From NCBI GenBank assembly GCA_036446195.1, contig JAZFSN010000051.1, positions 1 through 40,547 on the forward strand: a DNA stretch of 40,547 bases, in the 5' to 3' direction. Source of the stretch: Thermodesulfovibrionia bacterium. Lineage in GTDB: Bacteria > Nitrospirota > Thermodesulfovibrionia > UBA6902 > BMS3Bbin08. Shown piece by piece: positions 23,934 through 38,975 of the stretch. Each line of letters begins with the position of its first letter. The stretch's first letter is position 1. A program made the translations under genes and the position numbers. Below the pieces are notes generated by a model. It was not told the origin of the DNA. It saw nothing but the letters and a program-made list of their open reading frames with translations, and did no database searches.

Positions 23934-24009
23934 GCGGGTGTAGCTCAGCTGGTAGAGCACAACCTTGACAAGGTTGGGGTCGCGGGTTCGAATCCCGTCG
24001 CCCGCTCCA
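23934..24009 (+). tRNA. tRNA-Val (anticodon GAC)
   Basis: Hand-folded cloverleaf: acceptor GCGGGTG/CGCCCGC, D arm GCTC..GAGC, anticodon arm CAACC-TTGACAA-GGTTG, T arm GCGGG-TTCGAAT-CCCGT, encoded CCA. Confidence 0.93.
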
Positions 24010-27294: not shown

Positions 27295-27370
27295 GGCGGC
27301 GTACCCAAGTGGTTAAGGGGGAGGTCTGCAAAACCTTTATTCAGCGGTTCGAATCCGCTCGCCGCCTCCA
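27295..27370 (+). tRNA. tRNA-Cys (anticodon GCA)
   Basis: Acceptor GGCGGCG/CGCCGCC, anticodon arm GAGGT-CTGCAAA-ACCTT, T arm AGCGG-TTCGAAT-CCGCT, discriminator U then CCA. Confidence 0.92.
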
Positions 27371-28259: not shown

Positions 28260-28288
28260 TTGACGGCTATACCTTATTTTGATATACT
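28260..28288 (+). promoter_or_regulatory. Sigma70-like promoter for the che operon
   Basis: TTGACG (28260-28265), 17 nt, TATACT (28283-28288); about 100-nt leader to cheY ATG with GAAAGGA SD. Confidence 0.45.
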
Positions 28289-28395: not shown

Positions 28396-28764
28396 ATGAA
28401 GTCTATTCTTATTGTTGATGATTCAGAAACTACCAGATCAATTATTAAGTCATCGATTGAGGAGATAGACGACATAGATATATTTGAGGCTCCCACAGGT
28501 TTTGAGGCCCTAAGAATGTTACCCACTCAATCTTTTGATCTGGTTTTTATAGATATCAATATGCCTGATATAAATGGTTTAGAACTTATTAATTTCATTA
28601 AAAATAATGATAAATATAAAAAAATCCCTATTATAATTGTGTCAACTGAAAGCAGTGAGGAAGATAGGAAAAAAGGGCTGGCCCTGGGCGCGCTTGCTTA
28701 TTTGACAAAACCTTTTAAAGGAGAGGAGCTTATAGATACCGTTAAAAAGGCACTGAGTTTATGA
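28396..28764 (+). CDS. cheY: Chemotaxis-type response regulator CheY (receiver only)
   Basis: 122 aa; IVDDS acidic pocket, phospho-acceptor in FIDINMPD, VST, TKPF. Confidence 0.9.
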   Translation: MKSILIVDDSETTRSIIKSSIEEIDDIDIFEAPTGFEALRMLPTQSFDLVFIDINMPDINGLELINFIKNNDKYKKIPIIIVSTESSEEDRKKGLALGALAYLTKPFKGEELIDTVKKALSL

Positions 28765-30746
28765 AGACTTCAAAAAAAGATTTTATTGTAGAGGCAGAAG
28801 ATATTATTAGTACCGCAAATAATGGCCTGCTAGAGCTTCAAGACGCTTTTAATCCTGATACATTAAATTCCGTATTCCGTGCTGTTCATACCCTGAAAGG
28901 CCTTTCAGGGCTTTTTGGCTTTCAGGGCATAACCGACCTCAGTCATAATTTAGAGTCTGTTCTAGATGATTTAAGGTTAGATAAAATTAAATTTACTGAC
29001 AATACTTTAGCCTTTATTTTTAGGAACATGGATATTCTCAAGAACCTTGTTGCTCGGGTTAGCGAGGATAAAGAGATTGACGATGTAAGTGATGCCATTA
29101 AAGATATAGAGTCTTTCAGGGTGTCAGCTAAGTCTGAAAGTAGAGATTTAAATCTTGAAGATTTAGGGATTAGCCCTTCTATTTTGAAAGTTCTTTCTGA
29201 ATACGAAGGACACAGGCTTAAAAGTAATATCAAAGATGGAAAAGGGATATATAGTATTAAAGCTGTTTTTAGTCTTACAGACTTTGCTACTGGCCTTGAG
29301 GCTCTTAGTTCTAAAATGAAAGAGTCAGGTGAGATAATGGCAACCCTTCCAAACTCAGAGGGTGTCCCTGATGGTTCCATAGGATTCAACTTGCTGTTTG
29401 GCAGTTCTTCGAAAATAGATGATATTAGATCAAAGGCAGCGCCAGCAGTTATCGAAGAAATATATGATTCTAAAAAGTTTGAACCAGAGACTAAACCGTC
29501 TGTGTCAAAGACTCAAGAAGTGTCATTAAAAAGCACCTCTAATACAATAAGGGTAGACATAGGAAAATTAGATAAAATTCTTAATACTGTAGGGGAGCTT
29601 GTTATGGCTAAAGGCGCTCTTGTAAGGATTGGTGCAGAATTAGCTGAAAATATGGCGTATCACCCTTTAACTGCTGATGTCTATAAGATTGCCCAGACCC
29701 TCGAAAGGAAGCTTGCAGAACTCCAGGACCAAATCCTTGAGTTGAGGATGGTTCCTTTCAGCCAGATTTTTATGCGGCTCTCACAAGTTATAAAAAGACA
29801 CATAAGAGAGGTTGGTAAGAAAATAGAACTTGAACTTTATGGAGAAGATACCGAAATAGATAAACTATTGGCAGAGGAAATAATCGATCCACTGGTACAT
29901 ATTATCAGGAATGCCATTGATCACGGGATAGAGCAGAGTGATAAAAGAATTTCTCTCGGGAAACAGGAGTCTGGCAGGATAACTTTAAAGGCTTTTTCAA
30001 AAGGCAGCAATGTAATGGTTACAGCTCAGGATGATGGTGCGGGTATTGACCTCGATAAAATTCTTCGTAATGCAATTGAGCGCAAAATGATACCTGAGGA
30101 TCAAGTACTAAATCCCAAAGAAATAATTGACCTAATCTTTATTCCCGGTTTAAGCACTAAAGAAGTGGTAAATGAAGTGTCAGGCAGAGGAATGGGTATG
30201 GACATTGTAAAGGAAAAGATAACATCGCTGGGTGGCTTTGTGGATGTCGAATCAGAAATTGGCAAAGGAACCAAGTTTATTCTTACACTGCCAATAACAC
30301 TTGCCATAATCAAGGCATTGATAGTAGATGTAGAAAATGAGCAATTTGCAATACCTATTACATCCATCCTGGAAACATTGAGTGTTAGACCGGAAAAAAT
30401 CCAGACAATTGAAGGGAGAGAGGTTATTGAATTGAGGGGTGAAATGTTGTCCCTGCTAAACGTTGCTGATGTATTCCTGCTTGAGAAAAAACCTAAGGAT
30501 GAATATTTCGTAGTAGTGGTTAGTGTTGGAGGCAAACGGCTTGGACTTTTAATAGATAATTTGACAGAGCAGACAGAAATTGTTGTTAAACCTCTCGGGG
30601 ACCATTTAAAAAATATCCGGGGTTTTGCAGGAGCTGCAGAAATAGGCAGACACAAAATAGTTCTTGTGCTCGATGTTGATGCTATGATGGAAGAGGCCTT
30701 TTCAAGAAAAAATATAATTTCATCTATACAAGAGATAGAAAATTGA
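28761..30746 (+). CDS. cheA: Chemotaxis histidine kinase CheA
   Basis: Hpt FRAVHTLKGLSGLFGF; dimerisation IRVDIGKLDKILNTVGELV; N box HIIRNAIDHGIE; DDGAGID; GRGMGMDIV; C-terminal CheW-like domain; ATGA overlap with cheY. Confidence 0.95.
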   Translation: MKTSKKDFIVEAEDIISTANNGLLELQDAFNPDTLNSVFRAVHTLKGLSGLFGFQGITDLSHNLESVLDDLRLDKIKFTDNTLAFIFRNMDILKNLVARVSEDKEIDDVSDAIKDIESFRVSAKSESRDLNLEDLGISPSILKVLSEYEGHRLKSNIKDGKGIYSIKAVFSLTDFATGLEALSSKMKESGEIMATLPNSEGVPDGSIGFNLLFGSSSKIDDIRSKAAPAVIEEIYDSKKFEPETKPSVSKTQEVSLKSTSNTIRVDIGKLDKILNTVGELVMAKGALVRIGAELAENMAYHPLTADVYKIAQTLERKLAELQDQILELRMVPFSQIFMRLSQVIKRHIREVGKKIELELYGEDTEIDKLLAEEIIDPLVHIIRNAIDHGIEQSDKRISLGKQESGRITLKAFSKGSNVMVTAQDDGAGIDLDKILRNAIERKMIPEDQVLNPKEIIDLIFIPGLSTKEVVNEVSGRGMGMDIVKEKITSLGGFVDVESEIGKGTKFILTLPITLAIIKALIVDVENEQFAIPITSILETLSVRPEKIQTIEGREVIELRGEMLSLLNVADVFLLEKKPKDEYFVVVVSVGGKRLGLLIDNLTEQTEIVVKPLGDHLKNIRGFAGAAEIGRHKIVLVLDVDAMMEEAFSRKNIISSIQEIEN

Positions 30747-30793
30747 AGTTTCAAAGGGATTGTAAAACAGATTAAAATATTACGGAGATAGCG

Positions 30794-31603
30794 ATGTACG
30801 AGGATTTTTTTGGTTTGAAAATAAGGCCGTTTAGCAAAACGCCGGATCCAAAATTCCTCTTTTACACCAGATCTCATGAAGAGGCTTTTGCAAGGCTCCA
30901 ACACGTGGTAGAGGAAAAAGAGCTTATTCTTCTGACTGGAGAAGTGGGCTCTGGCAAGACAACTCTCTCGCGTGCACTTATGGATTCTCTTGGACAGGAA
31001 TACAGAATAATTTCAATTTTAAATCCTCGCCTCACCCCTGCACAGTTTCTGAGGTCTGTTGCTAAAGGGTTTGATATTGACGCCGCACGCTCCAAGGATG
31101 ACCTGCTTGAAACAATTTATGAGAAAGTTTATGAGGATTACACTAAGGGGATAACGCCTGTTATAATTATTGATGAGGCTCAGCTTATCCCATATAAAAG
31201 CACTTTTGAGGAGATTCGGCTTCTTACAAATTTTCAGCTTGATGAGGAAAACCTTTTAAGTTTGATTTTGATTGGGCAACCGGATCTCAGAACAAAACTT
31301 GAACGCAAGGTATATCTTCCATTAAGACAGAGGATTGGACTTAGATGTCACCTTAATTCCCTTAACAGTGAGGAAGTAAGGGATTATATAGCGCACAGAT
31401 TAAGGGTTGCCGGTAGGGCTGACCCATTGTTCAGTGAAGAGGCAATAGATGCACTATATAAATTCTCACAGGGAATTCCTAGAAATATTAATAATATTGC
31501 TTCTAATTCATTGCTGGAAGGTTTTGGCAAAGAGTCACACATGATATCAGAAGAAATTATATATGATGTGGCACATGAGTTAGGACTTAACGGGGTGATG
31601 TAA
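30794..31603 (+). CDS. ExeA/GspA/MshM-like AAA ATPase (ATPase domain only)
   Basis: FFGLKIRPFSKTPDPKFLF..., Walker A GEVGSGKTT, Walker B VIIIDEAQ, LILIGQP, GIPRNINNI: COG3267-type signature. Confidence 0.85.
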   Translation: MYEDFFGLKIRPFSKTPDPKFLFYTRSHEEAFARLQHVVEEKELILLTGEVGSGKTTLSRALMDSLGQEYRIISILNPRLTPAQFLRSVAKGFDIDAARSKDDLLETIYEKVYEDYTKGITPVIIIDEAQLIPYKSTFEEIRLLTNFQLDEENLLSLILIGQPDLRTKLERKVYLPLRQRIGLRCHLNSLNSEEVRDYIAHRLRVAGRADPLFSEEAIDALYKFSQGIPRNINNIASNSLLEGFGKESHMISEEIIYDVAHELGLNGVM

Positions 31604-31615
31604 AAGACTTACATT

Positions 31616-31673
31616 GCAAATTGCAAATTGTAAGAAGGTTTTAAAAATTTTGAATTTTACATTTTACAATTTT
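31616..31673 (+). repeat. Periodic hairpin in ATPase-cheW spacer
   Basis: GCAAATTGCAAATTGTAA (31616-31633) versus TTACATTTTACAATTTT (31657-31673): 14/17 complementary with periodic mismatches. Confidence 0.6.
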
Positions 31674-31692
31674 CACTTGAACGGAATTCATT

Positions 31693-32349
31693 ATGGATAT
31701 AGCTAAAATTAGAAAAAAAATAAAAAAGCTTAATGATCAGAAAGCTAAAGATGATTCTGAAGAGAAGAAGGCGGAAAAACCTGTTGAAGACGCCGGGATA
31801 GAGGAAGCTCAAGAAACAGTTGATGCAAAAACTGTAATAAAACAGGAAGAGGCAAAAAAAACAGGAGGGGATAGCGGAACTGAGCTATCAAAAGCTGAAA
31901 CAGAAGCAGGGACTGTCCCGGTAGAGGAAACCGAAGTTATTGCTTTTAGGCTTGCAAATGAAGAATATGCTATAAGGATAGCTGAGTTACAGGAGGTCCT
32001 TAGGAAACAAAGAATTACTGCTATTCCAAGATCTCCGAAATATTTAAAAGGGGTAACATCCATCCGCGGTAAAATATTACCGATTGTATGTCTTAGGGAA
32101 AGGTTGGGACTTAAAGGGGAAGACGCGGATAATGAAAAAATAATTGTCCTCTCTGGTAAGAAAGAGCCGTTAGGTGTCTTGGTGGATGCTGTTATAGGCG
32201 TATTCAGATTTCCCTCCAGGGAGCTTTCTCGCCCCCCGTCTACCTTAACTGTTGAAGAAAAGGATTTTATAGAGGGAGTTGTAAAGATACACGATAAATT
32301 TACATCTATCCTGAAAGTCGATGAGATGCTCAAAATTGAGACATCATGA
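31693..32349 (+). CDS. cheW: CheW-like coupling protein with ~75-aa Lys/Glu-rich N-terminal extension
   Basis: VIAFRLANEEYAIRIAELQEVLR...IPRSPKYLKGVTSIRGKILPIVCLRERLGL. Confidence 0.88.
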   Translation: MDIAKIRKKIKKLNDQKAKDDSEEKKAEKPVEDAGIEEAQETVDAKTVIKQEEAKKTGGDSGTELSKAETEAGTVPVEETEVIAFRLANEEYAIRIAELQEVLRKQRITAIPRSPKYLKGVTSIRGKILPIVCLRERLGLKGEDADNEKIIVLSGKKEPLGVLVDAVIGVFRFPSRELSRPPSTLTVEEKDFIEGVVKIHDKFTSILKVDEMLKIETS

Positions 32350-32771
32350 AATTGTTCGATACTCTTTATAATGTTAGTCTCAGAGTTAAAATAGTTGGAT
32401 TTGTTACTGTCTTACTCATAATAGCCTTTTTATTAGCAGGTTTTACAAGCGCCTCGTTCATCCGTAAAGATGTATTCAATGTTGCAAAGAATTATTCATA
32501 TAGTATAGCGTACTTACTAACCAAAGAACTCAAAACCCAGGCACTGGCAAAAGGCGATCCTGATTTAATCAGAAACTTTATCAGTGAGTACCCTTTTAGT
32601 CTTAGGAAGGTTGGCTCAATAAGTGTTCTGGATTTAGATGGCGTCAACAGTGATGCTGAAGACAGAAAAATCCTGCAGTCGATAACTTCAGACTATACAG
32701 GGTTTATTGAAGCCCTGGATAGTAATTATGACGGAATAAGGAGGATGATGCAAAAACTCGGATTAATTTAG
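32346..32771 (+). CDS. Small single-pass membrane protein, unknown function
   Basis: 141 aa; one N-terminal TM helix VKIVGFVTVLLIIAFLLAGF; ATGA overlap with upstream cheW; no motif recognised. Confidence 0.6.
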   Translation: MKLFDTLYNVSLRVKIVGFVTVLLIIAFLLAGFTSASFIRKDVFNVAKNYSYSIAYLLTKELKTQALAKGDPDLIRNFISEYPFSLRKVGSISVLDLDGVNSDAEDRKILQSITSDYTGFIEALDSNYDGIRRMMQKLGLI

Positions 32772-32787
32772 ACCCCATGAGAAGGAT

Positions 32788-34557
32788 ATGGCCGGCAGAG
32801 CTTTCTTGCTACTAACGGGGCAGACCGAGTTTTGTATTGACAATCATATGAAAAACAACAGATTTTTAGGCGGCACATTTACCTTATCACTTCTTTTAAT
32901 ACTGCTTTTAGGTCAGGGTTTCGGTATTTTCATATTTATTTTATTAGCACAAAGCGGCCTGATTGATTCACTTAAAGAAAAGGTAGTATTTCTGGTCGCA
33001 TATCAGGGAGTTTTAGTAATGTTTACTGTCCTTTTAATAATATCTGCTTTTAACAGAAAAATTAAAAGCCCTCTCTCAGATCTTAACGCTGCTGTAAACA
33101 GTGCAGGCGCCGGTGACCTTACAGTTGCAATACGGCCTTCAGAGAATCCGGAAATAGCTGTTTTAATAGTAGGTTTTAATTCATTGATTTCTCGCCTTAA
33201 AGATACCATAAAAAAATTATTTTCCACGACAAATGACGTAACGACGGCAATTGAACAGACAGACTTAATTATTGACAGGGTTACCGAGGGTACTCATAAT
33301 CAGGTGGACGCTACAAAAGCGGTGATTTCAGCTATAGAAGATGCCAATAAATCACAAAAAGAAATTTTAGAGGGCACACAAAGTCTAGGAGGATTTTCCG
33401 AAGAAAATTTTAGTTCGCTGGTGCAGTTAAATGCTACGTCAGAAGAAATGACTGAAAGCTCGGAGCATCTCTTCCAAAATGTCTCAGATGCATATTCAAC
33501 CATTGCTGAAATATCTTCTGCAGCAAAGACAATTGCAAAGAGCACTGAAGAACTTTCAACGTCTACAGAAGAGATAACCGCGTCTATTGATCAAATAAGC
33601 GCTAATATTAAAGAGGTGGAGAGCAGCACCAAGGAGTCCGCCAGTCTTACAGATCTTGTGAGAGAAATTGCTTCAGATACAGGAATGATGTCTGTAGCCG
33701 ATTCAATGGAAGGCATGGAAGAAATAATAAAGTCTGTAGATAAGACTATTGAGTTAGCCGATACTCTGAAAACAAAATCTACTGACGTGGAAAAGGTCCT
33801 TACTGTAATAGACGATGTTACCAAGCAAACCAATTTATTGAGTGTGAATGCTGCTATTCTTGCTTCTCAGGCGGGTGAATACGGAAAGGGATTTTCAGTA
33901 GTGGCGAAGGAGATTAAAATGCTGGCGGACAGGACAGCGTCTTCTGCGAAAGAGATAACAGGTATTGTAGAGGCTATTCAAAATGGGATAACAGAGATGA
34001 CGCATGTTGCCGAAAACAGCAAAATAAAAGTTACTAATGGTAATGCTCTTGTCGTAAAAACCGGGGAAGGATTCAGGGAAGTAATTAACAGCGCCCAAAA
34101 GTCCGCTGAAATGGCTAAAACTATCCAGAGTGCAACGAAAGAACAGGTAAATGGAATTGTTCAGATGAAGGAATCAATGGATATGATATTTATGATGGTC
34201 GAAAATGTTACTAAAAGTACCCGTGAGCATGAAACCGGTTCAGAACATTTGGTAAGTGTTACTGGAAAGATTAAAGAAATATCAGAAACTATTAAGAGAG
34301 GCATGAAGGAGCAGACTTCAGGGATACATCTAATATCAAAAAATCTTGAAATAACAAACGAGAGGATTAAACATATTGCTGATATCTCATCAAAACATGG
34401 TAAAGTCAATGAGGATGTTCTTTCTGCAGTGCAAAAGATAGAGGGCATCTGCAGTAGTACCCTCACAATTGCTCAAGAAATGTCAGCATCTTTTAATACT
34501 CTCTTACAAGAAGCAGAAGTCCTTAGGAGTGACATGAAGGGGTTTAAATTTGAATAA
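32788..34557 (+). CDS. Methyl-accepting chemotaxis protein (TM hairpin, HAMP, long signalling domain; no periplasmic sensor)
   Basis: Two closely spaced TM helices, HAMP-like SPLSDLNAAVNSAGAGDLTV, hairpin tip KQTNLLSVNAAILASQAGEYGKGFSVVAKEIKMLADRT; alternative start 32848. Confidence 0.92.
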   Translation: MAGRAFLLLTGQTEFCIDNHMKNNRFLGGTFTLSLLLILLLGQGFGIFIFILLAQSGLIDSLKEKVVFLVAYQGVLVMFTVLLIISAFNRKIKSPLSDLNAAVNSAGAGDLTVAIRPSENPEIAVLIVGFNSLISRLKDTIKKLFSTTNDVTTAIEQTDLIIDRVTEGTHNQVDATKAVISAIEDANKSQKEILEGTQSLGGFSEENFSSLVQLNATSEEMTESSEHLFQNVSDAYSTIAEISSAAKTIAKSTEELSTSTEEITASIDQISANIKEVESSTKESASLTDLVREIASDTGMMSVADSMEGMEEIIKSVDKTIELADTLKTKSTDVEKVLTVIDDVTKQTNLLSVNAAILASQAGEYGKGFSVVAKEIKMLADRTASSAKEITGIVEAIQNGITEMTHVAENSKIKVTNGNALVVKTGEGFREVINSAQKSAEMAKTIQSATKEQVNGIVQMKESMDMIFMMVENVTKSTREHETGSEHLVSVTGKIKEISETIKRGMKEQTSGIHLISKNLEITNERIKHIADISSKHGKVNEDVLSAVQKIEGICSSTLTIAQEMSASFNTLLQEAEVLRSDMKGFKFE

Positions 34558-35059
34558 GCTTGCTGTGTTTACAATTGCAGGCGAAGAATTTGGAATTGAG
34601 CTTAACAGGGTTGTAGAGATTATCAGGCCCCAGAAGACTACTTTCCTTCCCAATGTCCCTGATTTTATTGATGGAGTAATTAATCTTAGAGGTACTGTAA
34701 TAACAGTGATGGATCTGAGAAAGCGCCTTAATGTAAAACCCTCTTCTTCTCGAGAAAAGATTATAGTTGCCAGTATGCACGAAGAGAAAATTGGAATTCT
34801 TGTTGATACTGTCAAGGAGATAATATCTATTGAGGATGACCAGATCTCACCCCCGCCTTCTGTCTTTAAGGGACTAAAGGCAGAATACTTCAGGGGTATT
34901 GGCAAAGTTGAGGACAGGTTAATAGTAATCCTGGATCTTGATAGCCTGCTATCCTCTGAAGAGATGATATCTCTTGAAGAAAGAAAAGTGAAATTATCTA
35001 CTGACGAGCTTTCAAGGGTATCTTTCAATGACCAAAAAGAGGAAGACAAAATTGACTGA
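34550..35059 (+). CDS. cheW: CheW coupling protein
   Basis: 169 aa; FTIAGEEFGIELNRVVEIIRPQKTTFLPNVPDFIDGVINLRGTVITVMDLRKRL; TTG start overlapping mcp stop. Confidence 0.9.
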   Translation: MNKLAVFTIAGEEFGIELNRVVEIIRPQKTTFLPNVPDFIDGVINLRGTVITVMDLRKRLNVKPSSSREKIIVASMHEEKIGILVDTVKEIISIEDDQISPPPSVFKGLKAEYFRGIGKVEDRLIVILDLDSLLSSEEMISLEERKVKLSTDELSRVSFNDQKEEDKID

Positions 35060-37034
35060 AAAATTAAAGAGCTTGCTCAGACATACAGATGCAGAAGTAA
35101 GGATACAGGCTTTAAAAGACGTAAAAAAGCACGGTAAAAATCTATCCAATGTTATTTCCGTTCTTATAAAGGGACTTGGAGACAAAGAATGGCGGATCAG
35201 AAAAACAGCTGTTGAGATGCTAATTGATATTAGAGGAAAGAAGGTTATAAAGGAATTAATTAATACCTTATATCTTGAGGACGACGCTAATGCAAGAAAT
35301 TCAGCAATTGAGGCCCTTATAGCATTAGGCTCTGAGGCTACCGAGCCTCTTATTAATGCATTTAAGGGTTCCAACGATGATGTAAAAAAATTCATCATTG
35401 ATATCCTTGGTACCTCAGAAAATTTAAAGGTACTTCCCTTGTTGATGAAGGCACTTGAGTACAAGGATGAAAATATAAGGACCGCGGCTGTGGAACACCT
35501 TGGTAATATACGGGGGAATGTCGCTGTTATTAACGCATTAACAGGAGTTTTAAGGGATGAAAGTGTCTGGGTAGCCTATTCTGCTGCTGTAGCCCTGGGC
35601 AGAATAGGCGATGCAAAGGCAGTCTCTGCACTTGTTTCAGTTTTACCGCAGAAGACTTTAAGAGAGCCTGTAATAAGGGCGCTTGGCCAGATTGCTGATG
35701 CCGGTTCGCTTTCTTCAATTGTGCCTTTCCTTCAGGATAAATCAAAAACTATAAGAGAAGAAACGCTAAGTGCTATAGAACAATTTTTTCGAAAAGGGGT
35801 ACCAAATGGAATAATAGTAAAGAGCTTAAAGAGCGTTCTTGGCAGTAAAGCTCCAAATTTTCTCTTGCCATATACCCGGAGCAATAAAAAAAGAGTAAAG
35901 GTTGCTGCAGTACTATTGCTTGGACTTCTCAAAGATAAAAAGTCTATTGGCCCTCTTTTTGAGATGTCATTGGAAGAAGACCTCCATGAAATAGTCGTAA
36001 AGGCGTTGGTCTTTATCGGAAAGTCAATGCCAGAGTTGCTTATACCATTTTTTAATGTAAATGATTCCTATAAAAGAAGGGTTTTATGTGATGTAGCTGG
36101 TAAAATGGGAGCTGGCGATTTTTTTGAGTATCTTGTTGACCGACTTAAGGATGAAGACGGTCATGTTAGGGGAAATGCTGCTATTGCACTTTCAAAATTG
36201 AATGACCCGAGAGCAATAAAATATATCAAACCGCTCCTTCTTGACGAATATGAAAATATTCAGGAAGAAGCAATAAAATCCCTTTCGAAATTTAAAAAAC
36301 GGATCAATTTAAGCGAAATAATAAAGTGGCTTTCCGATAAGAATCCTGTGTTAAAAAAAAATTCAGCATTGCTTCTTGGGCTTCTTAAGGAACAGGGTTC
36401 GGTTAAAGCCCTCGGAGTCGCTTTAAAAGACAGTAATATTTCAGTCAGGAAAGCTGTAGTTGAGGCGCTTGGGGATATTGAGGGGAAAAGTGTCTTAAAA
36501 TTTTTACTTCAGGCACTAATGGACGAATCTCCTGAAATACGCCTTATTGCCGCTATTGCAATTGGCAGAATGTGTTCTGAAGAATCGATAGAACATCTGA
36601 TGATTCTCCTCTGTGATTCAGATATAAGGGTCAGGGCCGCAGCGGCAAAAGGTCTTGGCAATACAGGCAACAAAAAAGCAATTGATCCATTAATACGATT
36701 ACTATCTGACGACTCGGGTTTCGTAAGGGTAGTTGCTATAGAGGCACTTGGCAATTTTAAGGTAGAAAAAGTTAAAAATATCCTGATAGAGCTTCTCAAT
36801 GAAAAAGATGCCGAGATAAAAAGTACAGCAGTGGGATCATTGGCAGTATTTGATGGAGTTGCACAGGACATAATTCCGCTTTTAAAGGATAAACAATGGT
36901 CTGTCAGAAAAAAAGCTGTCGATGTCCTGGGTGTTTTTTTTAAGGATGAAAGCTATGCATATCTAAAGGAAGTTGCAAATACAGATGAAGATTCCCATGT
37001 AAGAGATACTGCTGAGAGGTATCTTAGTGTTTGA
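35028..37034 (+). CDS. HEAT-repeat (PBS-lyase HEAT-like) protein, 668 aa
   Basis: At least 11 repeats of the form VRxxAxxALGxIGDxxAxxxLxxLL (for example VRAAAAKGLGNTGNKKAIDPLIRLL); start may be slightly later. Confidence 0.88.
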   Translation: MTKKRKTKLTEKLKSLLRHTDAEVRIQALKDVKKHGKNLSNVISVLIKGLGDKEWRIRKTAVEMLIDIRGKKVIKELINTLYLEDDANARNSAIEALIALGSEATEPLINAFKGSNDDVKKFIIDILGTSENLKVLPLLMKALEYKDENIRTAAVEHLGNIRGNVAVINALTGVLRDESVWVAYSAAVALGRIGDAKAVSALVSVLPQKTLREPVIRALGQIADAGSLSSIVPFLQDKSKTIREETLSAIEQFFRKGVPNGIIVKSLKSVLGSKAPNFLLPYTRSNKKRVKVAAVLLLGLLKDKKSIGPLFEMSLEEDLHEIVVKALVFIGKSMPELLIPFFNVNDSYKRRVLCDVAGKMGAGDFFEYLVDRLKDEDGHVRGNAAIALSKLNDPRAIKYIKPLLLDEYENIQEEAIKSLSKFKKRINLSEIIKWLSDKNPVLKKNSALLLGLLKEQGSVKALGVALKDSNISVRKAVVEALGDIEGKSVLKFLLQALMDESPEIRLIAAIAIGRMCSEESIEHLMILLCDSDIRVRAAAAKGLGNTGNKKAIDPLIRLLSDDSGFVRVVAIEALGNFKVEKVKNILIELLNEKDAEIKSTAVGSLAVFDGVAQDIIPLLKDKQWSVRKKAVDVLGVFFKDESYAYLKEVANTDEDSHVRDTAERYLSV

Positions 37035-37911
37035 GGAAGAGAATATACTCCTTCCAACAGATATTTTCCGTCTGATAAGGGATTTCATAAGGAATTACTG
37101 CGGTATATATTTTGATGACAAATCGAAATATATACTTGAGCGCAGACTTAACAGACGTCTTAAGATCAATCATCTGAAAGACTTCAGAGAATATTATCGT
37201 CTTCTTATGTATGATAAAAACCGTGATAAGGAACTGAGGGAAATAATTGATGTCTTGACTGTAAATGAAACTTATTTTTTCAGGGAGCGCAATCAACTTA
37301 CCGCTTTTACTGAGGAGATTATTCCAGAGCTTAAAAAGAAGAAAAAAGATAAAAAAAAGATAAACATCTGGTCTGCAGGATGCTCTACAGGGGAGGAACC
37401 GTATTCCATTTCTATATTAATGCTCGAAAAAGGAGGTTTTAGTGATTGGGATGTCAATATACTGGGCAGCGATATAAGCCAAAGGGTCCTGCGGGTTGCC
37501 AGGGAAGGCATTTATAAAAAAAATTCTTTCAGGGCCACTGACCCGTATTTCATTAAAAGCTATTTTCAGGAACAGCAAAACGGCGACCAAAGGATTTTGG
37601 ATAAAGTCAAAAAGCTCGTAAATTTTAACTGTTTGAATCTACTTGATTCCTTAAGGGTTAGACTTATTGGAAAAATGGATGTAATTTTTTGCCGGAATGT
37701 TTTAATATATTTTGATAAGGATACAAGAAAGAAAGTTATTGAGAATTTCTTTAATTTACTCAGAGAGGGCGGTTATCTCTTGCTTGGCCATACAGAATCA
37801 CTTATAAGTATAAGTACTGACTTTGAACTTAAACATTTAAAAAATGACATGGTTTATCAAAAACCGGAAAAATCGCAGGATAATTTGATGTCGGAAAAGG
37901 TGGATATATAG
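37027..37911 (+). CDS. cheR: Chemotaxis protein methyltransferase CheR
   Basis: FIRNYCGIYFDDKSKYILERRL, NETYFFRE, SAM motif IWSAGCSTGEEPYSI, IFCRNVLIYFD; GTG start overlapping HEAT gene end. Confidence 0.93.
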   Translation: MFEEENILLPTDIFRLIRDFIRNYCGIYFDDKSKYILERRLNRRLKINHLKDFREYYRLLMYDKNRDKELREIIDVLTVNETYFFRERNQLTAFTEEIIPELKKKKKDKKKINIWSAGCSTGEEPYSISILMLEKGGFSDWDVNILGSDISQRVLRVAREGIYKKNSFRATDPYFIKSYFQEQQNGDQRILDKVKKLVNFNCLNLLDSLRVRLIGKMDVIFCRNVLIYFDKDTRKKVIENFFNLLREGGYLLLGHTESLISISTDFELKHLKNDMVYQKPEKSQDNLMSEKVDI

Positions 37912-37913
37912 TA

Positions 37914-38975
37914 ATGCGGGATAGTAAGTCACGCCACATTAAGATTCTGATAGTTGATGACTCTGCCTTCAGCCGTCAAACAATAAAGAGGATTCTGGAG
38001 AAGATACCTGGAGCTGAGGTGGTAGGTGTGGCTACTGATGGCCATGATGGCATGAATAAGATCTTGAAGCTTAATCCGGATGTAATTACGCTTGATCTTG
38101 AGATGCCCGAAATGGATGGTTTCGCCCTTCTTCGGTGGATAATGAAAGAAAGACCATTGCCGGTAATAGTGGTAAGTTCTTATGGTGATAAGCCCACGGT
38201 ATTTAAAGCTTTAGAATTAGGTGCAGTGGATTTTGTTGTAAAACCGACAATGAAGGCATCATCAGAACTTGAGAATATAGAAAGTGATCTGATGAGCAAG
38301 GTTTTAGAAATTTCCACTCTTGATATTAAAAAAGTCAAAAGAAATGTATCTCTTTTGGAAGACAAGAAAGTTGTAGATGATACTTCTTTGTTAAATGAGA
38401 ACAAGATTGATGTGGTTGCCATAGGTTCCTCCACCGGTGGACCTACAGCAGTCCAGAATATATTAACTCGGCTTCCAGCCACTTTTTCCGGAGGGATAGT
38501 TATAAGTCAGCATATGCCGCCGAAGTATACCCGGCAGTTTGCTAACAGGATTAGTAGTATCTGTTTACTAAGCGTCAAAGAAGCTGAAAATGGTGAACTG
38601 GTTGAGAAAGGCAAGGCACTTGTTTGTCCCGGAGGTCATCACCTGGTTTTTAAGAAATCGAAAAAAGATGTTTTTGTGGTTTTAAAGGATTCTTCTTCCA
38701 ATGACAGGTATATACCCTCTGTAGATATTATGATGACGAGTGTTGCAGAAATTTACGGGAAAAGATCAATGGGTATAATTCTTACTGGAATGGGAAATGA
38801 TGGAAAGCAGGGAATGCTTGAAATCAGAAAAAGAGGGGGGGTTACCATAGCTGAGTCCGAAGAATCCTCTGTTATTTTTGGAATGCCCCGGGAAGTTATT
38901 TTGTCTTGCGGAGTTGATAGTGTGCTTTCTCTGGAAAAGATTCCAGCTGAAATTATGAAAAGAATGAAAACGTAG
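37914..38975 (+). CDS. cheB: Protein-glutamate methylesterase/glutaminase CheB (REC + esterase)
   Basis: ILIVDDSAFSR, ITLDLEMPEMDG; esterase IGSSTGGP, QHMP, TGMGNDG, FGMP. Confidence 0.94.
   Translation: MRDSKSRHIKILIVDDSAFSRQTIKRILEKIPGAEVVGVATDGHDGMNKILKLNPDVITLDLEMPEMDGFALLRWIMKERPLPVIVVSSYGDKPTVFKALELGAVDFVVKPTMKASSELENIESDLMSKVLEISTLDIKKVKRNVSLLEDKKVVDDTSLLNENKIDVVAIGSSTGGPTAVQNILTRLPATFSGGIVISQHMPPKYTRQFANRISSICLLSVKEAENGELVEKGKALVCPGGHHLVFKKSKKDVFVVLKDSSSNDRYIPSVDIMMTSVAEIYGKRSMGIILTGMGNDGKQGMLEIRKRGGVTIAESEESSVIFGMPREVILSCGVDSVLSLEKIPAEIMKRMKT

Follow-up and report, generated by a model that had tools for sequence, protein, structure and literature searches.

What purpose could be served by a chemosensory operon that has no flagellar gene beside it, and what is an ATPase gene doing between its cheA and cheW? 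Both questions are raised by a locus on contig JAZFSN010000051.1 of a Thermodesulfovibrionia bacterium (Nitrospirota; assembly GCA_036446195.1). Positions 1 to 40,547 of this contig form the 40,547-nucleotide (nt) stretch of DNA analysed here, referred to as the window. Ten consecutive plus-strand open reading frames (ORFs) span positions 28396-38975. With somewhat better than even confidence, we read them as a version, found in Nitrospirota (Thermodesulfovibrionia), of a conserved family of non-flagellar clusters, described in Geobacter as the beta-group/Esn cluster, in which the ATPase and a CheW protein with an N-terminal peptide would organise the receptor array, and the output would not be motility.

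The locus is real and, with the exception of one deleted gene that encoded a methyl-accepting chemotaxis protein (MCP), intact. Domains were called with Pfam and NCBIfam profiles, and these bore out the ten ORFs and the domains that an earlier reading, made from the DNA letters alone (the original prediction), had given them. The features are as follows (aa, amino acids; TM, transmembrane).

28260-28288, plus strand: sigma70-type promoter with extended -10 TG, TTGACG-N17-TATACT (10/12 consensus positions)
28396-28764, plus strand: cheY, single-domain receiver, 122 aa (Response_reg 1.1e-29)
28761-30746, plus strand: cheA, 661 aa, with P1, P3, P4 and P5 (Hpt, H-kinase_dim, HATPase_c and CheW domains)
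30794-31603, plus strand: stand-alone AAA+ ATPase, AAA_22/ExeA-like, 269 aa, base and lid only (AAA_22 4.9e-26)
31604-31692, plus strand: window-specific 89-nt spacer between the ATPase gene and the first cheW, carrying an imperfect inverted repeat (arms of 19 nt, 31615-31633 and 31657-31675)
31693-32349, plus strand: first cheW (cheW-N), 218 aa, with the N-terminal peptide MDIAKIRKKIKKL, an acidic low-complexity linker of ~70 aa and a CheW domain (CheW 1.3e-32, residues 82-214)
32346-32771, plus strand: 141-aa ORF, what an in-frame deletion left of a ~950-aa MCP gene (tblastn with MCPs of relatives)
32788-34557, plus strand: mcp, 589 aa, comprising TM hairpin, HAMP and signalling domain of 64H length (HAMP, MCPsignal)
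34550-35059, plus strand: second cheW, 169 aa, no extension (CheW 9e-37)
35028-37034, plus strand: HEAT-repeat protein, 668 aa (HEAT_2 1.1e-92)
37027-37911, plus strand: cheR (CheR_N and CheR, 5e-59)
37914-38975, plus strand: cheB, receiver and methylesterase (CheB_methylest 5.7e-60, Response_reg)

The CheY translation has D8/D9, D53, T84, Y102 and K105 all in place, and CheB scores 388 bits with NF001965 of NCBIfam, over the cut-off of 293. No Pfam match was found for a P2 domain in CheA. The N-terminal extension predicted for the first CheW is present and 81 aa long, as the domain begins at residue 82.

A gene order shared across phyla

Relatives of the ATPase were collected in two scans, one covering one genome per GTDB species and the other covering metagenomes and seeded with distant ATPases. 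The first gave at least 544 tblastn-confirmed loci, of which the best 80 were inspected, and the second at least 589, of which 80 were inspected; these loci were ORF-called and compared with the ten window proteins. All 160 inspected loci were che clusters. The best 80 of the at least 544 genome loci all belonged to Nitrospirota, with ATPase identities of 60-82%. Directly 5' of the ATPase gene stood cheA (78/78 genome loci, 58/63 metagenome loci), directly 3' of it cheW (63/69 and 57/62, respectively), and a HEAT gene followed further 3' in 52 of 57 genome loci. The usual order was cheY-cheA-ATPase-cheW-(MCP ~950 aa)-(MCP ~560-690 aa)-cheW-HEAT-cheR-cheB. Most Nitrospirota relatives encode one or two MCPs, after which the second cheW is kept, and a second Nitrospirota subtype has one MCP together with GAF and cheY genes downstream.

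The same skeleton is carried by a "Deltaproteobacteria bacterium" (L083), with 55% ATPase identity and no MCP, and by metagenome contigs with 41-49% ATPase identity (41% in L085). A "Betaproteobacteria bacterium" metagenome-assembled genome (MAG) and Myxococcota-like contigs have the same cluster type. What is invariant in the family is a core of cheY, cheA, AAA+ ATPase and cheW, the last with its conserved N-terminal peptide, and HEAT-cheR-cheB is a frequent add-on. The original prediction had regarded the gene set as unusual. This does not hold, given the same order in ~160 loci from Nitrospirota, Desulfuromonadales, the Betaproteobacteria MAG and the Myxococcota-like contigs, as well as a published member in Geobacter. 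A lack of the ATPase and HEAT genes in orthologous clusters, which it had named as a finding that would count against it, was not seen: both are conserved there.

A PATAN (PatA_N/DUF4388) gene lies directly 5' of cheY in many members other than the window (for example L001:6506-7630, L083:5680-7455, L087:5824-7533 and L092:2250-3449). In some loci the PATAN protein is fused to a receiver (REC) or GAF domain. This protein, which the window lacks, is a candidate for an output or a partner.

A cultured member was reached by profile search. Geothermobacter ehrlichii (Desulfuromonadales) has a cluster of 13 genes, namely PATAN-REC, cheY, cheA, ATPase, cheW, REC, cheW, ZnR-REC, HEAT, cheR, cheB, GAF and cheY. 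Identities between its proteins and those of the window are 57% for CheY, 43% for CheA, 53% for the ATPase, 55% for CheR and 46% for CheB. The Geothermobacter gene order matches GSU2224 to GSU2212 of Geobacter at three published anchor points: GSU2222 is CheA (esnC), GSU2221 is annotated as "ATPase", and GSU2220 is CheW (esnB) (Chan 2017, PMC5585712). We therefore infer that the window cluster is an Esn-family orthologue.

The window cluster shares with the Geobacter beta-group/Esn cluster the order cheY-cheA-ATPase-cheW...HEAT-cheR-cheB, as seen in Geothermobacter and as fitted by the three GSU tags, and in neither case are flagellar genes adjacent. There are also differences. The beta group was called Deltaproteobacteria-conserved and was defined without mcp genes (Tran 2008, PMC2577667), whereas the window cluster contains one 64H MCP gene and the remnant of a second, and its host belongs to Nitrospirota. 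The MCP that Geobacter uses is an orphan, the 40H GAF-MCP EsnA. The PATAN-REC, REC, ZnR-REC, GAF and second cheY genes of Geothermobacter are missing from the window. The Nitrospirota and Betaproteobacteria MAG members extend the range of the family and do not exclude the window cluster from it.

The AAA+ ATPase and the first CheW

The ATPase matches AAA_22 with 92 bits, against a cut-off of 27. Its Walker A (G49-T56), Walker B (D127/E128), sensor-1 N146, R180 and sensor-2 R230 are invariant from Nitrospirota down to relatives of 41% identity. Its AlphaFold2 model has a mean confidence (pLDDT) of 90.6, and a fold search with this model returned as best matches in the PDB the MuB filaments, Orc1/Cdc6 and TnsC, followed by RuvB, with template-modelling scores of ~0.7. 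A PDB search by sequence gave P-loop matches only. MuB, Orc1/Cdc6, TnsC and RuvB act as oligomeric, ATP-dependent switches; each brings in a partner, in many cases via a short peptide. Relatives of the ATPase number in the thousands, the closest named ones coming from Nitrospirota/Thermodesulfovibrionia MAGs. The original prediction could name no described role for the ATPase, and the literature searched agrees, as we found no paper in it that describes one.

Among the relatives are tandem-duplicated stand-alone ATPases, with two AAA_22 domains in 575-690 aa (proteins P0123, P0128, P0131 and P0132). We rejected the idea that the ATPase is a hitch-hiking transposon helper (MuB/TniB), as no transposase gene adjoins the ATPase gene, and its position is constant in ~160 loci across phyla.

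The CheW encoded after the ATPase starts with MDIAKIRKK, continues with an acidic or proline-rich low-complexity stretch of very variable length, and then has the CheW domain, for a total of 162-365 aa across orthologues. Its N-terminal peptide follows the pattern (M)D[IL]xK[IA]RKKAK, with a linker behind it that is disordered. In the genome loci, 70 of 72 first CheWs have the peptide (68 exact matches to the regular expression and two RNK variants), and in the metagenome loci all 63 of 63 have it or its MVDL/VDIL variant, which gives ~133/135 in total. The regular expression matched no unrelated ORF among 4962, and in these clusters the second CheW never carried the peptide.

Vibrio ParP has a similar architecture: its N-terminal domain binds ParC, a proline-rich linker comes next, and a CheW-like domain integrates into the array, while its gene lies next to that of its ATPase (PMC5706961). 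Here too, an ATPase gene in a che cluster is followed by one for a CheW-like protein with an N-terminal element and a long flexible linker; the likeness is one of architecture. ParC, in contrast, is of the ParA/MinD type and works with ParP in flagellar F6 systems, whereas the window ATPase has the AAA+ fold of MuB, TnsC and Orc1. Because of the architecture and of the strict co-occurrence of the ATPase and the peptide CheW, we propose that the two form a module for array assembly or positioning. The transposon-sequencing (Tn-seq) score of GSU2221 for growth on electrodes, -2.1 (PMC5585712), is compatible with this proposal.

The ATPase could instead be the output itself, an assembly ATPase similar to ExeA, GspA or MshM that drives export through a secretin, of a pilus or of outer-membrane cytochromes under Che control. 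Its nearest relatives in sequence are the AAA cores of long ExeA/GspA proteins with peptidoglycan-binding domains (~40% identity, with the same catalytic motifs), and it reaches 244.5 bits with TIGR03015, the model for the XrtA/PEP-CTERM-associated ATPase of exopolysaccharide loci. An export role would also explain the matrix and electrode phenotypes of a family that is tied to extracellular electron transfer and matrix. However, the TIGR03015 score is under the cut-off of 324.5, and the 269-aa protein is without the TM and peptidoglycan-binding parts that ExeA uses, the PG_binding_1 domain and other C-terminal parts being restricted to its longer relatives. In the annotated loci no secretin, type II secretion or pilus gene adjoins the cluster, and in the window the ATPase gene has no type II secretion or exopolysaccharide neighbours. 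Furthermore, the gene keeps its place between cheA and cheW, often with a stop/start overlap, and does not lie near response regulators. Taken together, we consider this export role unlikely.

Similarly improbable, in our view, is a peptide that acts independently of the ATPase, as an amphipathic helix that tethers CheW to the membrane or the nucleoid, with the ATPase serving separately, for example as a chaperone of CheA. The peptide does have the features of such a helix: I3, I6, I10 and L13 of MDIAKIRKKIKKL fall on one helical face, with lysines and arginines elsewhere. Moreover, the nearest folds to the ATPase, MuB and TnsC, are those of DNA-bound filaments. On the other hand, D2, R7 and K8 of the peptide are near-invariant across phyla, which suggests a specific docking rather than a generic charge, and the peptide is confined to the CheW that adjoins the ATPase.

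The HEAT protein and possible outputs of the pathway

Our results agree with the non-flagellar layout, resembling systems for alternative cellular functions (ACF), that had been predicted for this operon. As the original prediction had it, no cheZ, cheC, cheD, cheV, flagellar or pilus gene was seen in the window. The eight related loci annotated with Pfam have no flagellar or pilus gene within +/-10 kb, and neither they nor the window encode CheZ, CheC, CheD, CheX or CheV. The ACF class is defined in MiST by class-specific hidden Markov models for CheA, CheB and CheR (PMC6943060). Judged from gene content and context, a non-flagellar, ACF-like pathway is most likely.

The operon could still be an ordinary flagellar chemotaxis operon whose flagellar genes lie elsewhere in the genome. 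It has the full set of CheA, CheW, CheY, CheR, CheB and MCP, with a single-domain CheY, and relatives in the genus Thermodesulfovibrio are motile. Against this stand the missing accessory che genes and flagellar neighbours just described, and a context that is not of the sigma28 type, with conservation of a sigma70 promoter instead. Orthologous genes in Geobacter have an effect on the colonisation of electrodes, and the family occurs in Myxococcota-like contigs and, in Desulfuromonas, in flagellated and non-flagellated members alike (PMC8235581). We regard a flagellar function as quite improbable.

Scarless deletions of esnB and esnC in Geobacter abolished the colonisation of electrodes and left Fe(III) oxide reduction normal (PMC5585712), and the beta group reportedly controls the extracellular matrix, for which unpublished results were cited (PMC2577667). 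Twelve loci lack HEAT-cheR-cheB, and in these cheY-cheA-ATPase-cheW, with the peptide, leads straight into genes of multihaem cytochromes (L088, L092, L094, L098, L104, L114, L117, L121, L126, L135, L144 and L149). These encode (i) an MtrC/MtrF-like protein of ~670-750 aa with 9-10 haems (CXXCH), (ii) a Paired_CXXCH, MtrA-like protein of ~335 aa with nine haems, and (iii) a secreted protein of ~640 aa that ends in VKW, has no Pfam match and is a candidate outer-membrane barrel. The subtype also encodes a solute-binding protein and a HAMP protein. In this subtype, the che core appears to be fused to the operon of a porin-cytochrome conduit. The cytochrome subtype and the electrode phenotype of Geobacter provide at least two independent links between the family and extracellular electron transfer. 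For the Nitrospirota locus of the window, an electron-transfer output is speculative.

The HEAT protein seems to be linked to methylation. In the related loci that have a HEAT gene, it lies directly 5' of cheR, and the window protein is 26% identical to its Geothermobacter orthologue over 646 aa. Among 35 protein matches (P0404-P0438), 33 combine a HEAT_2 with a CheR domain in ~590-680 aa, at 35-100% identity to the query; the remaining two have HEAT_2 only (partial, named Myxococcota) and CheR only. The fusion proteins come from one lineage, and the three genomic contexts analysed (L084:13038-14531, L089:10001-11953 and the P0423 contig) are all ATPase-containing che clusters. A parallel is found in CheR-TPR fusions of ACF clusters (PMC3447774), in which a helical-repeat solenoid is likewise joined to CheR in non-motility che clusters. 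The TPR part is short and C-terminal, whereas the HEAT part is large; it stands at the N-terminus of the fusions and forms a protein of its own in the window. Because of these Rosetta-stone fusions and of the CheR-TPR parallel, our analysis points to a role of the HEAT protein with the CheR methyltransferase. For the HEAT protein, the role of a phycobilin lyase was rejected, as NblB, CpcE and CpcF scored far under their cut-offs and the hosts are not phototrophs.

The HEAT protein could have this role and also bind CheY~P, in the manner of Cpc7. In Myxococcus xanthus, the Che7 cluster has the order cheY-cheA-cheW-mcp-Cpc7(HEAT)-cheR-cheB-des7 (PMC3945109). CheY7 binds Cpc7 (Darnell 2014, as summarised in PMC11514114), and Che7 has a developmental, non-motility function. 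The original prediction considered Che7 and Cpc7 the closest analogy, which is reasonable insofar as the order cheY-cheA-cheW-mcp-HEAT-cheR-cheB, with HEAT directly before cheR, is common to both. Geobacter Esn is nevertheless closer, since Che7 has no ATPase. Further differences are the single short CheW of Che7 (148 aa, no extension), its cytoplasmic Mcp7 and its desaturase Des7, compared with an MCP with two TM segments and no desaturase in the window. Between the HEAT protein and Cpc7, the comparison made here is one of gene order.

From these observations the following mechanism can be proposed. The 64H MCP, CheA and the two CheWs would form a membrane array, in which CheA would phosphorylate CheY and CheB, and CheR and CheB would adapt the receptor. 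The ATPase would work as an oligomeric, ATP-dependent switch of the kind seen in MuB, TnsC and Orc1. It would dock the basic peptide at the N-terminus of the first CheW via its flexible linker, and thereby assemble, stabilise or position the array. The two proteins would then be a non-homologous counterpart of the Vibrio ParC/ParP pair. The HEAT solenoid could scaffold or regulate CheR and might, as in the Myxococcus CheY7-Cpc7 pair, also be a target of CheY~P. The output would not be motility, and would probably be a surface or envelope trait, for example the production of matrix, colonisation or extracellular electron transfer.

Several points weigh against this proposal. The interaction between ATPase and peptide is purely inferential, and the amphipathic, cationic N-terminal helix of the first CheW could bind membrane or DNA instead. 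A polar effect on esnB, which lies downstream, may account for the Tn-seq phenotype of GSU2221, and no clean deletion has been published. Equating "G. sulfurreducens cluster 5" with GSU2212-2224 draws on three published locus tags and the Geothermobacter order. Four Nitrospirota loci (L051, L052, L059 and L068) have cheY-cheA-ATPase with no cheW or HEAT gene within 8-10 kb downstream. Finally, relatives have PATAN, GAF and extra receiver genes that the window lacks, no cytochrome genes lie close to the operon, and an output deduced from other lineages may not be transferable to it.

A more far-reaching possibility, which we put forward tentatively and well short of conviction, is that the ATPase and the peptide CheW are an unrecognised array-organising module, in which an ATP switch similar to MuB, TnsC and Orc1 would capture the invariant peptide and nucleate, stabilise or position chemoreceptor arrays. 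The module would have evolved independently of the ParA-type ParC/PpfA and would define a cross-phylum family, under whose control extracellular electron transfer or surface colonisation would have come repeatedly; in some lineages it would share one operon with porin-cytochrome conduit genes. The beta-group/Esn family itself is large and under-studied, and was already known from Geobacter. The only genetic data for it come from there, on electrode colonisation, and published accounts treat it as Deltaproteobacteria-specific and pass over the ATPase. The present analysis adds the peptide of the first CheW, a fold class for the ATPase, the fusion of HEAT to CheR, a subtype linked to cytochromes and a wider phyletic range. 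The occurrence in Nitrospirota, the Betaproteobacteria MAG and Myxococcota-like contigs, together with the links to Mtr-like cytochromes, suggests a general sensing system for decisions on a surface or redox lifestyle. The pairing of ATPase and CheW peptide offers a testable hypothesis of a second, non-ParA route to the assembly or positioning of chemoreceptor arrays, and the HEAT::CheR fusions are a lead on HEAT function in Che7-like systems.

Receptors, promoter and surroundings of the operon

The 141-aa ORF has one hydrophobic segment, and no family could be assigned to it. In tblastn with the MCPs of five relatives (L003, L004, L005, L007 and L008), their residues ~1-98 matched positions 32346-32642 and their residues ~907-953 matched 32622-32768, both in one frame. 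Therefore, the ORF is what an in-frame deletion of ~810 codons left of a ~950-aa MCP gene, and not a bona fide gene. The deletion took the HAMP, the signalling domain and most of the C-terminal Phosphonate-bd/PBP-like domain. The weak TIGR04553 match of the ORF is explained by its origin from such an MCP. In the near-identical contig L002, this decaying remnant has been shortened to 70 aa by another in-frame deletion of 213 nt, which includes the TM segment. The original prediction had counted the ORF as a TM accessory protein, an interpretation that we abandon. In the relatives, the ~950-aa MCPs carry a Phosphonate-bd/PBP-like domain of ~260 aa C-terminal to a complete 64H hairpin (L001:11597-14485, L003:4915-7776, L004:11561-14422 and similar), and this placing of a sensor domain is unusual.

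The retained MCP has a TM hairpin (26-44 and 64-82) with a loop of ~19 aa; its HAMP spans 88-138, and E364 forms the tip of the signalling hairpin. As predicted, it has no periplasmic domain; some orthologues have one of ~125 aa. From the HAMP end to E364 and from E364 to the C-terminus, the arms are ~225 aa each, or ~32 heptads per arm. Arm lengths are the same in its orthologues and in the large paralogue, and, judged by arm length, the in-cluster MCPs are assigned to the 64H class. Two transmembrane MCP genes of 64H length were built into the cluster, one of which was later deleted. Translation of the retained MCP probably starts at ATG 32848, and the gene call in L002 is 569 aa.

Decay of the whole window copy into a non-functional one is the least probable of the readings considered: the loss of an MCP down to 141 aa (70 aa in L002), the palindromic spacer that L002 is missing and a Y1 transposase gene 2 kb upstream would fit it, but the nine other genes are full length, with catalytic residues intact and 90-99% identity to L002, the promoter is conserved and one 64H MCP is kept.

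The sigma70-type promoter that had been predicted at 28260-28288 is present. Identical hexamers, the same spacing and the TGa stand 5' of cheY in six related loci (L003, L004, L005, L007, L009 and L015), in which the flanks have diverged. Promoter-like sites in the region are not in excess (39, against 34 +/- 6 expected from shuffling), and the support for this promoter is its phylogenetic conservation.

A base-by-base check found the predicted junctions exact: ATGA overlaps at cheY/cheA and at the first cheW and the 141-aa ORF, 8-nt overlaps at mcp/second cheW and at HEAT/cheR, and a gap of 2 nt at cheR/cheB. An overlap of 32 nt between the second cheW and the HEAT gene had not been mentioned. 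There are also true gaps, of 47 nt between cheA and the ATPase gene, 89 nt between the latter and the first cheW, and 16 nt between the 141-aa ORF and mcp, so that a continuous translational coupling of ten genes was overstated. In L002, the gap between the ATPase gene and the first cheW is 10 nt and lacks the inverted repeat of the window spacer. This repeat occurs once in the window; it could be a small inserted palindrome or an RNA element within the operon.

In one of the Nitrospirota relatives, L051, a second, divergent cheA and cheB fragments were found on the opposite strand. The remainder of the window holds a ribosomal protein operon, secY, rpoA, accA, dnaE, trpEGD, two tRNAs, an IS200-like gene and rlmN. 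The segment 24636-26654, 5' of the operon, encodes an aspartyl-protease/SEC-C protein, a 317-aa protein with an IS200-like Y1 transposase domain and a gene of the HVO_A0114 family. It is bracketed by tRNA-Val and tRNA-Cys (tRNAs at 23934-24009 and 27295-27370) and may be a small mobile or rearranged stretch.

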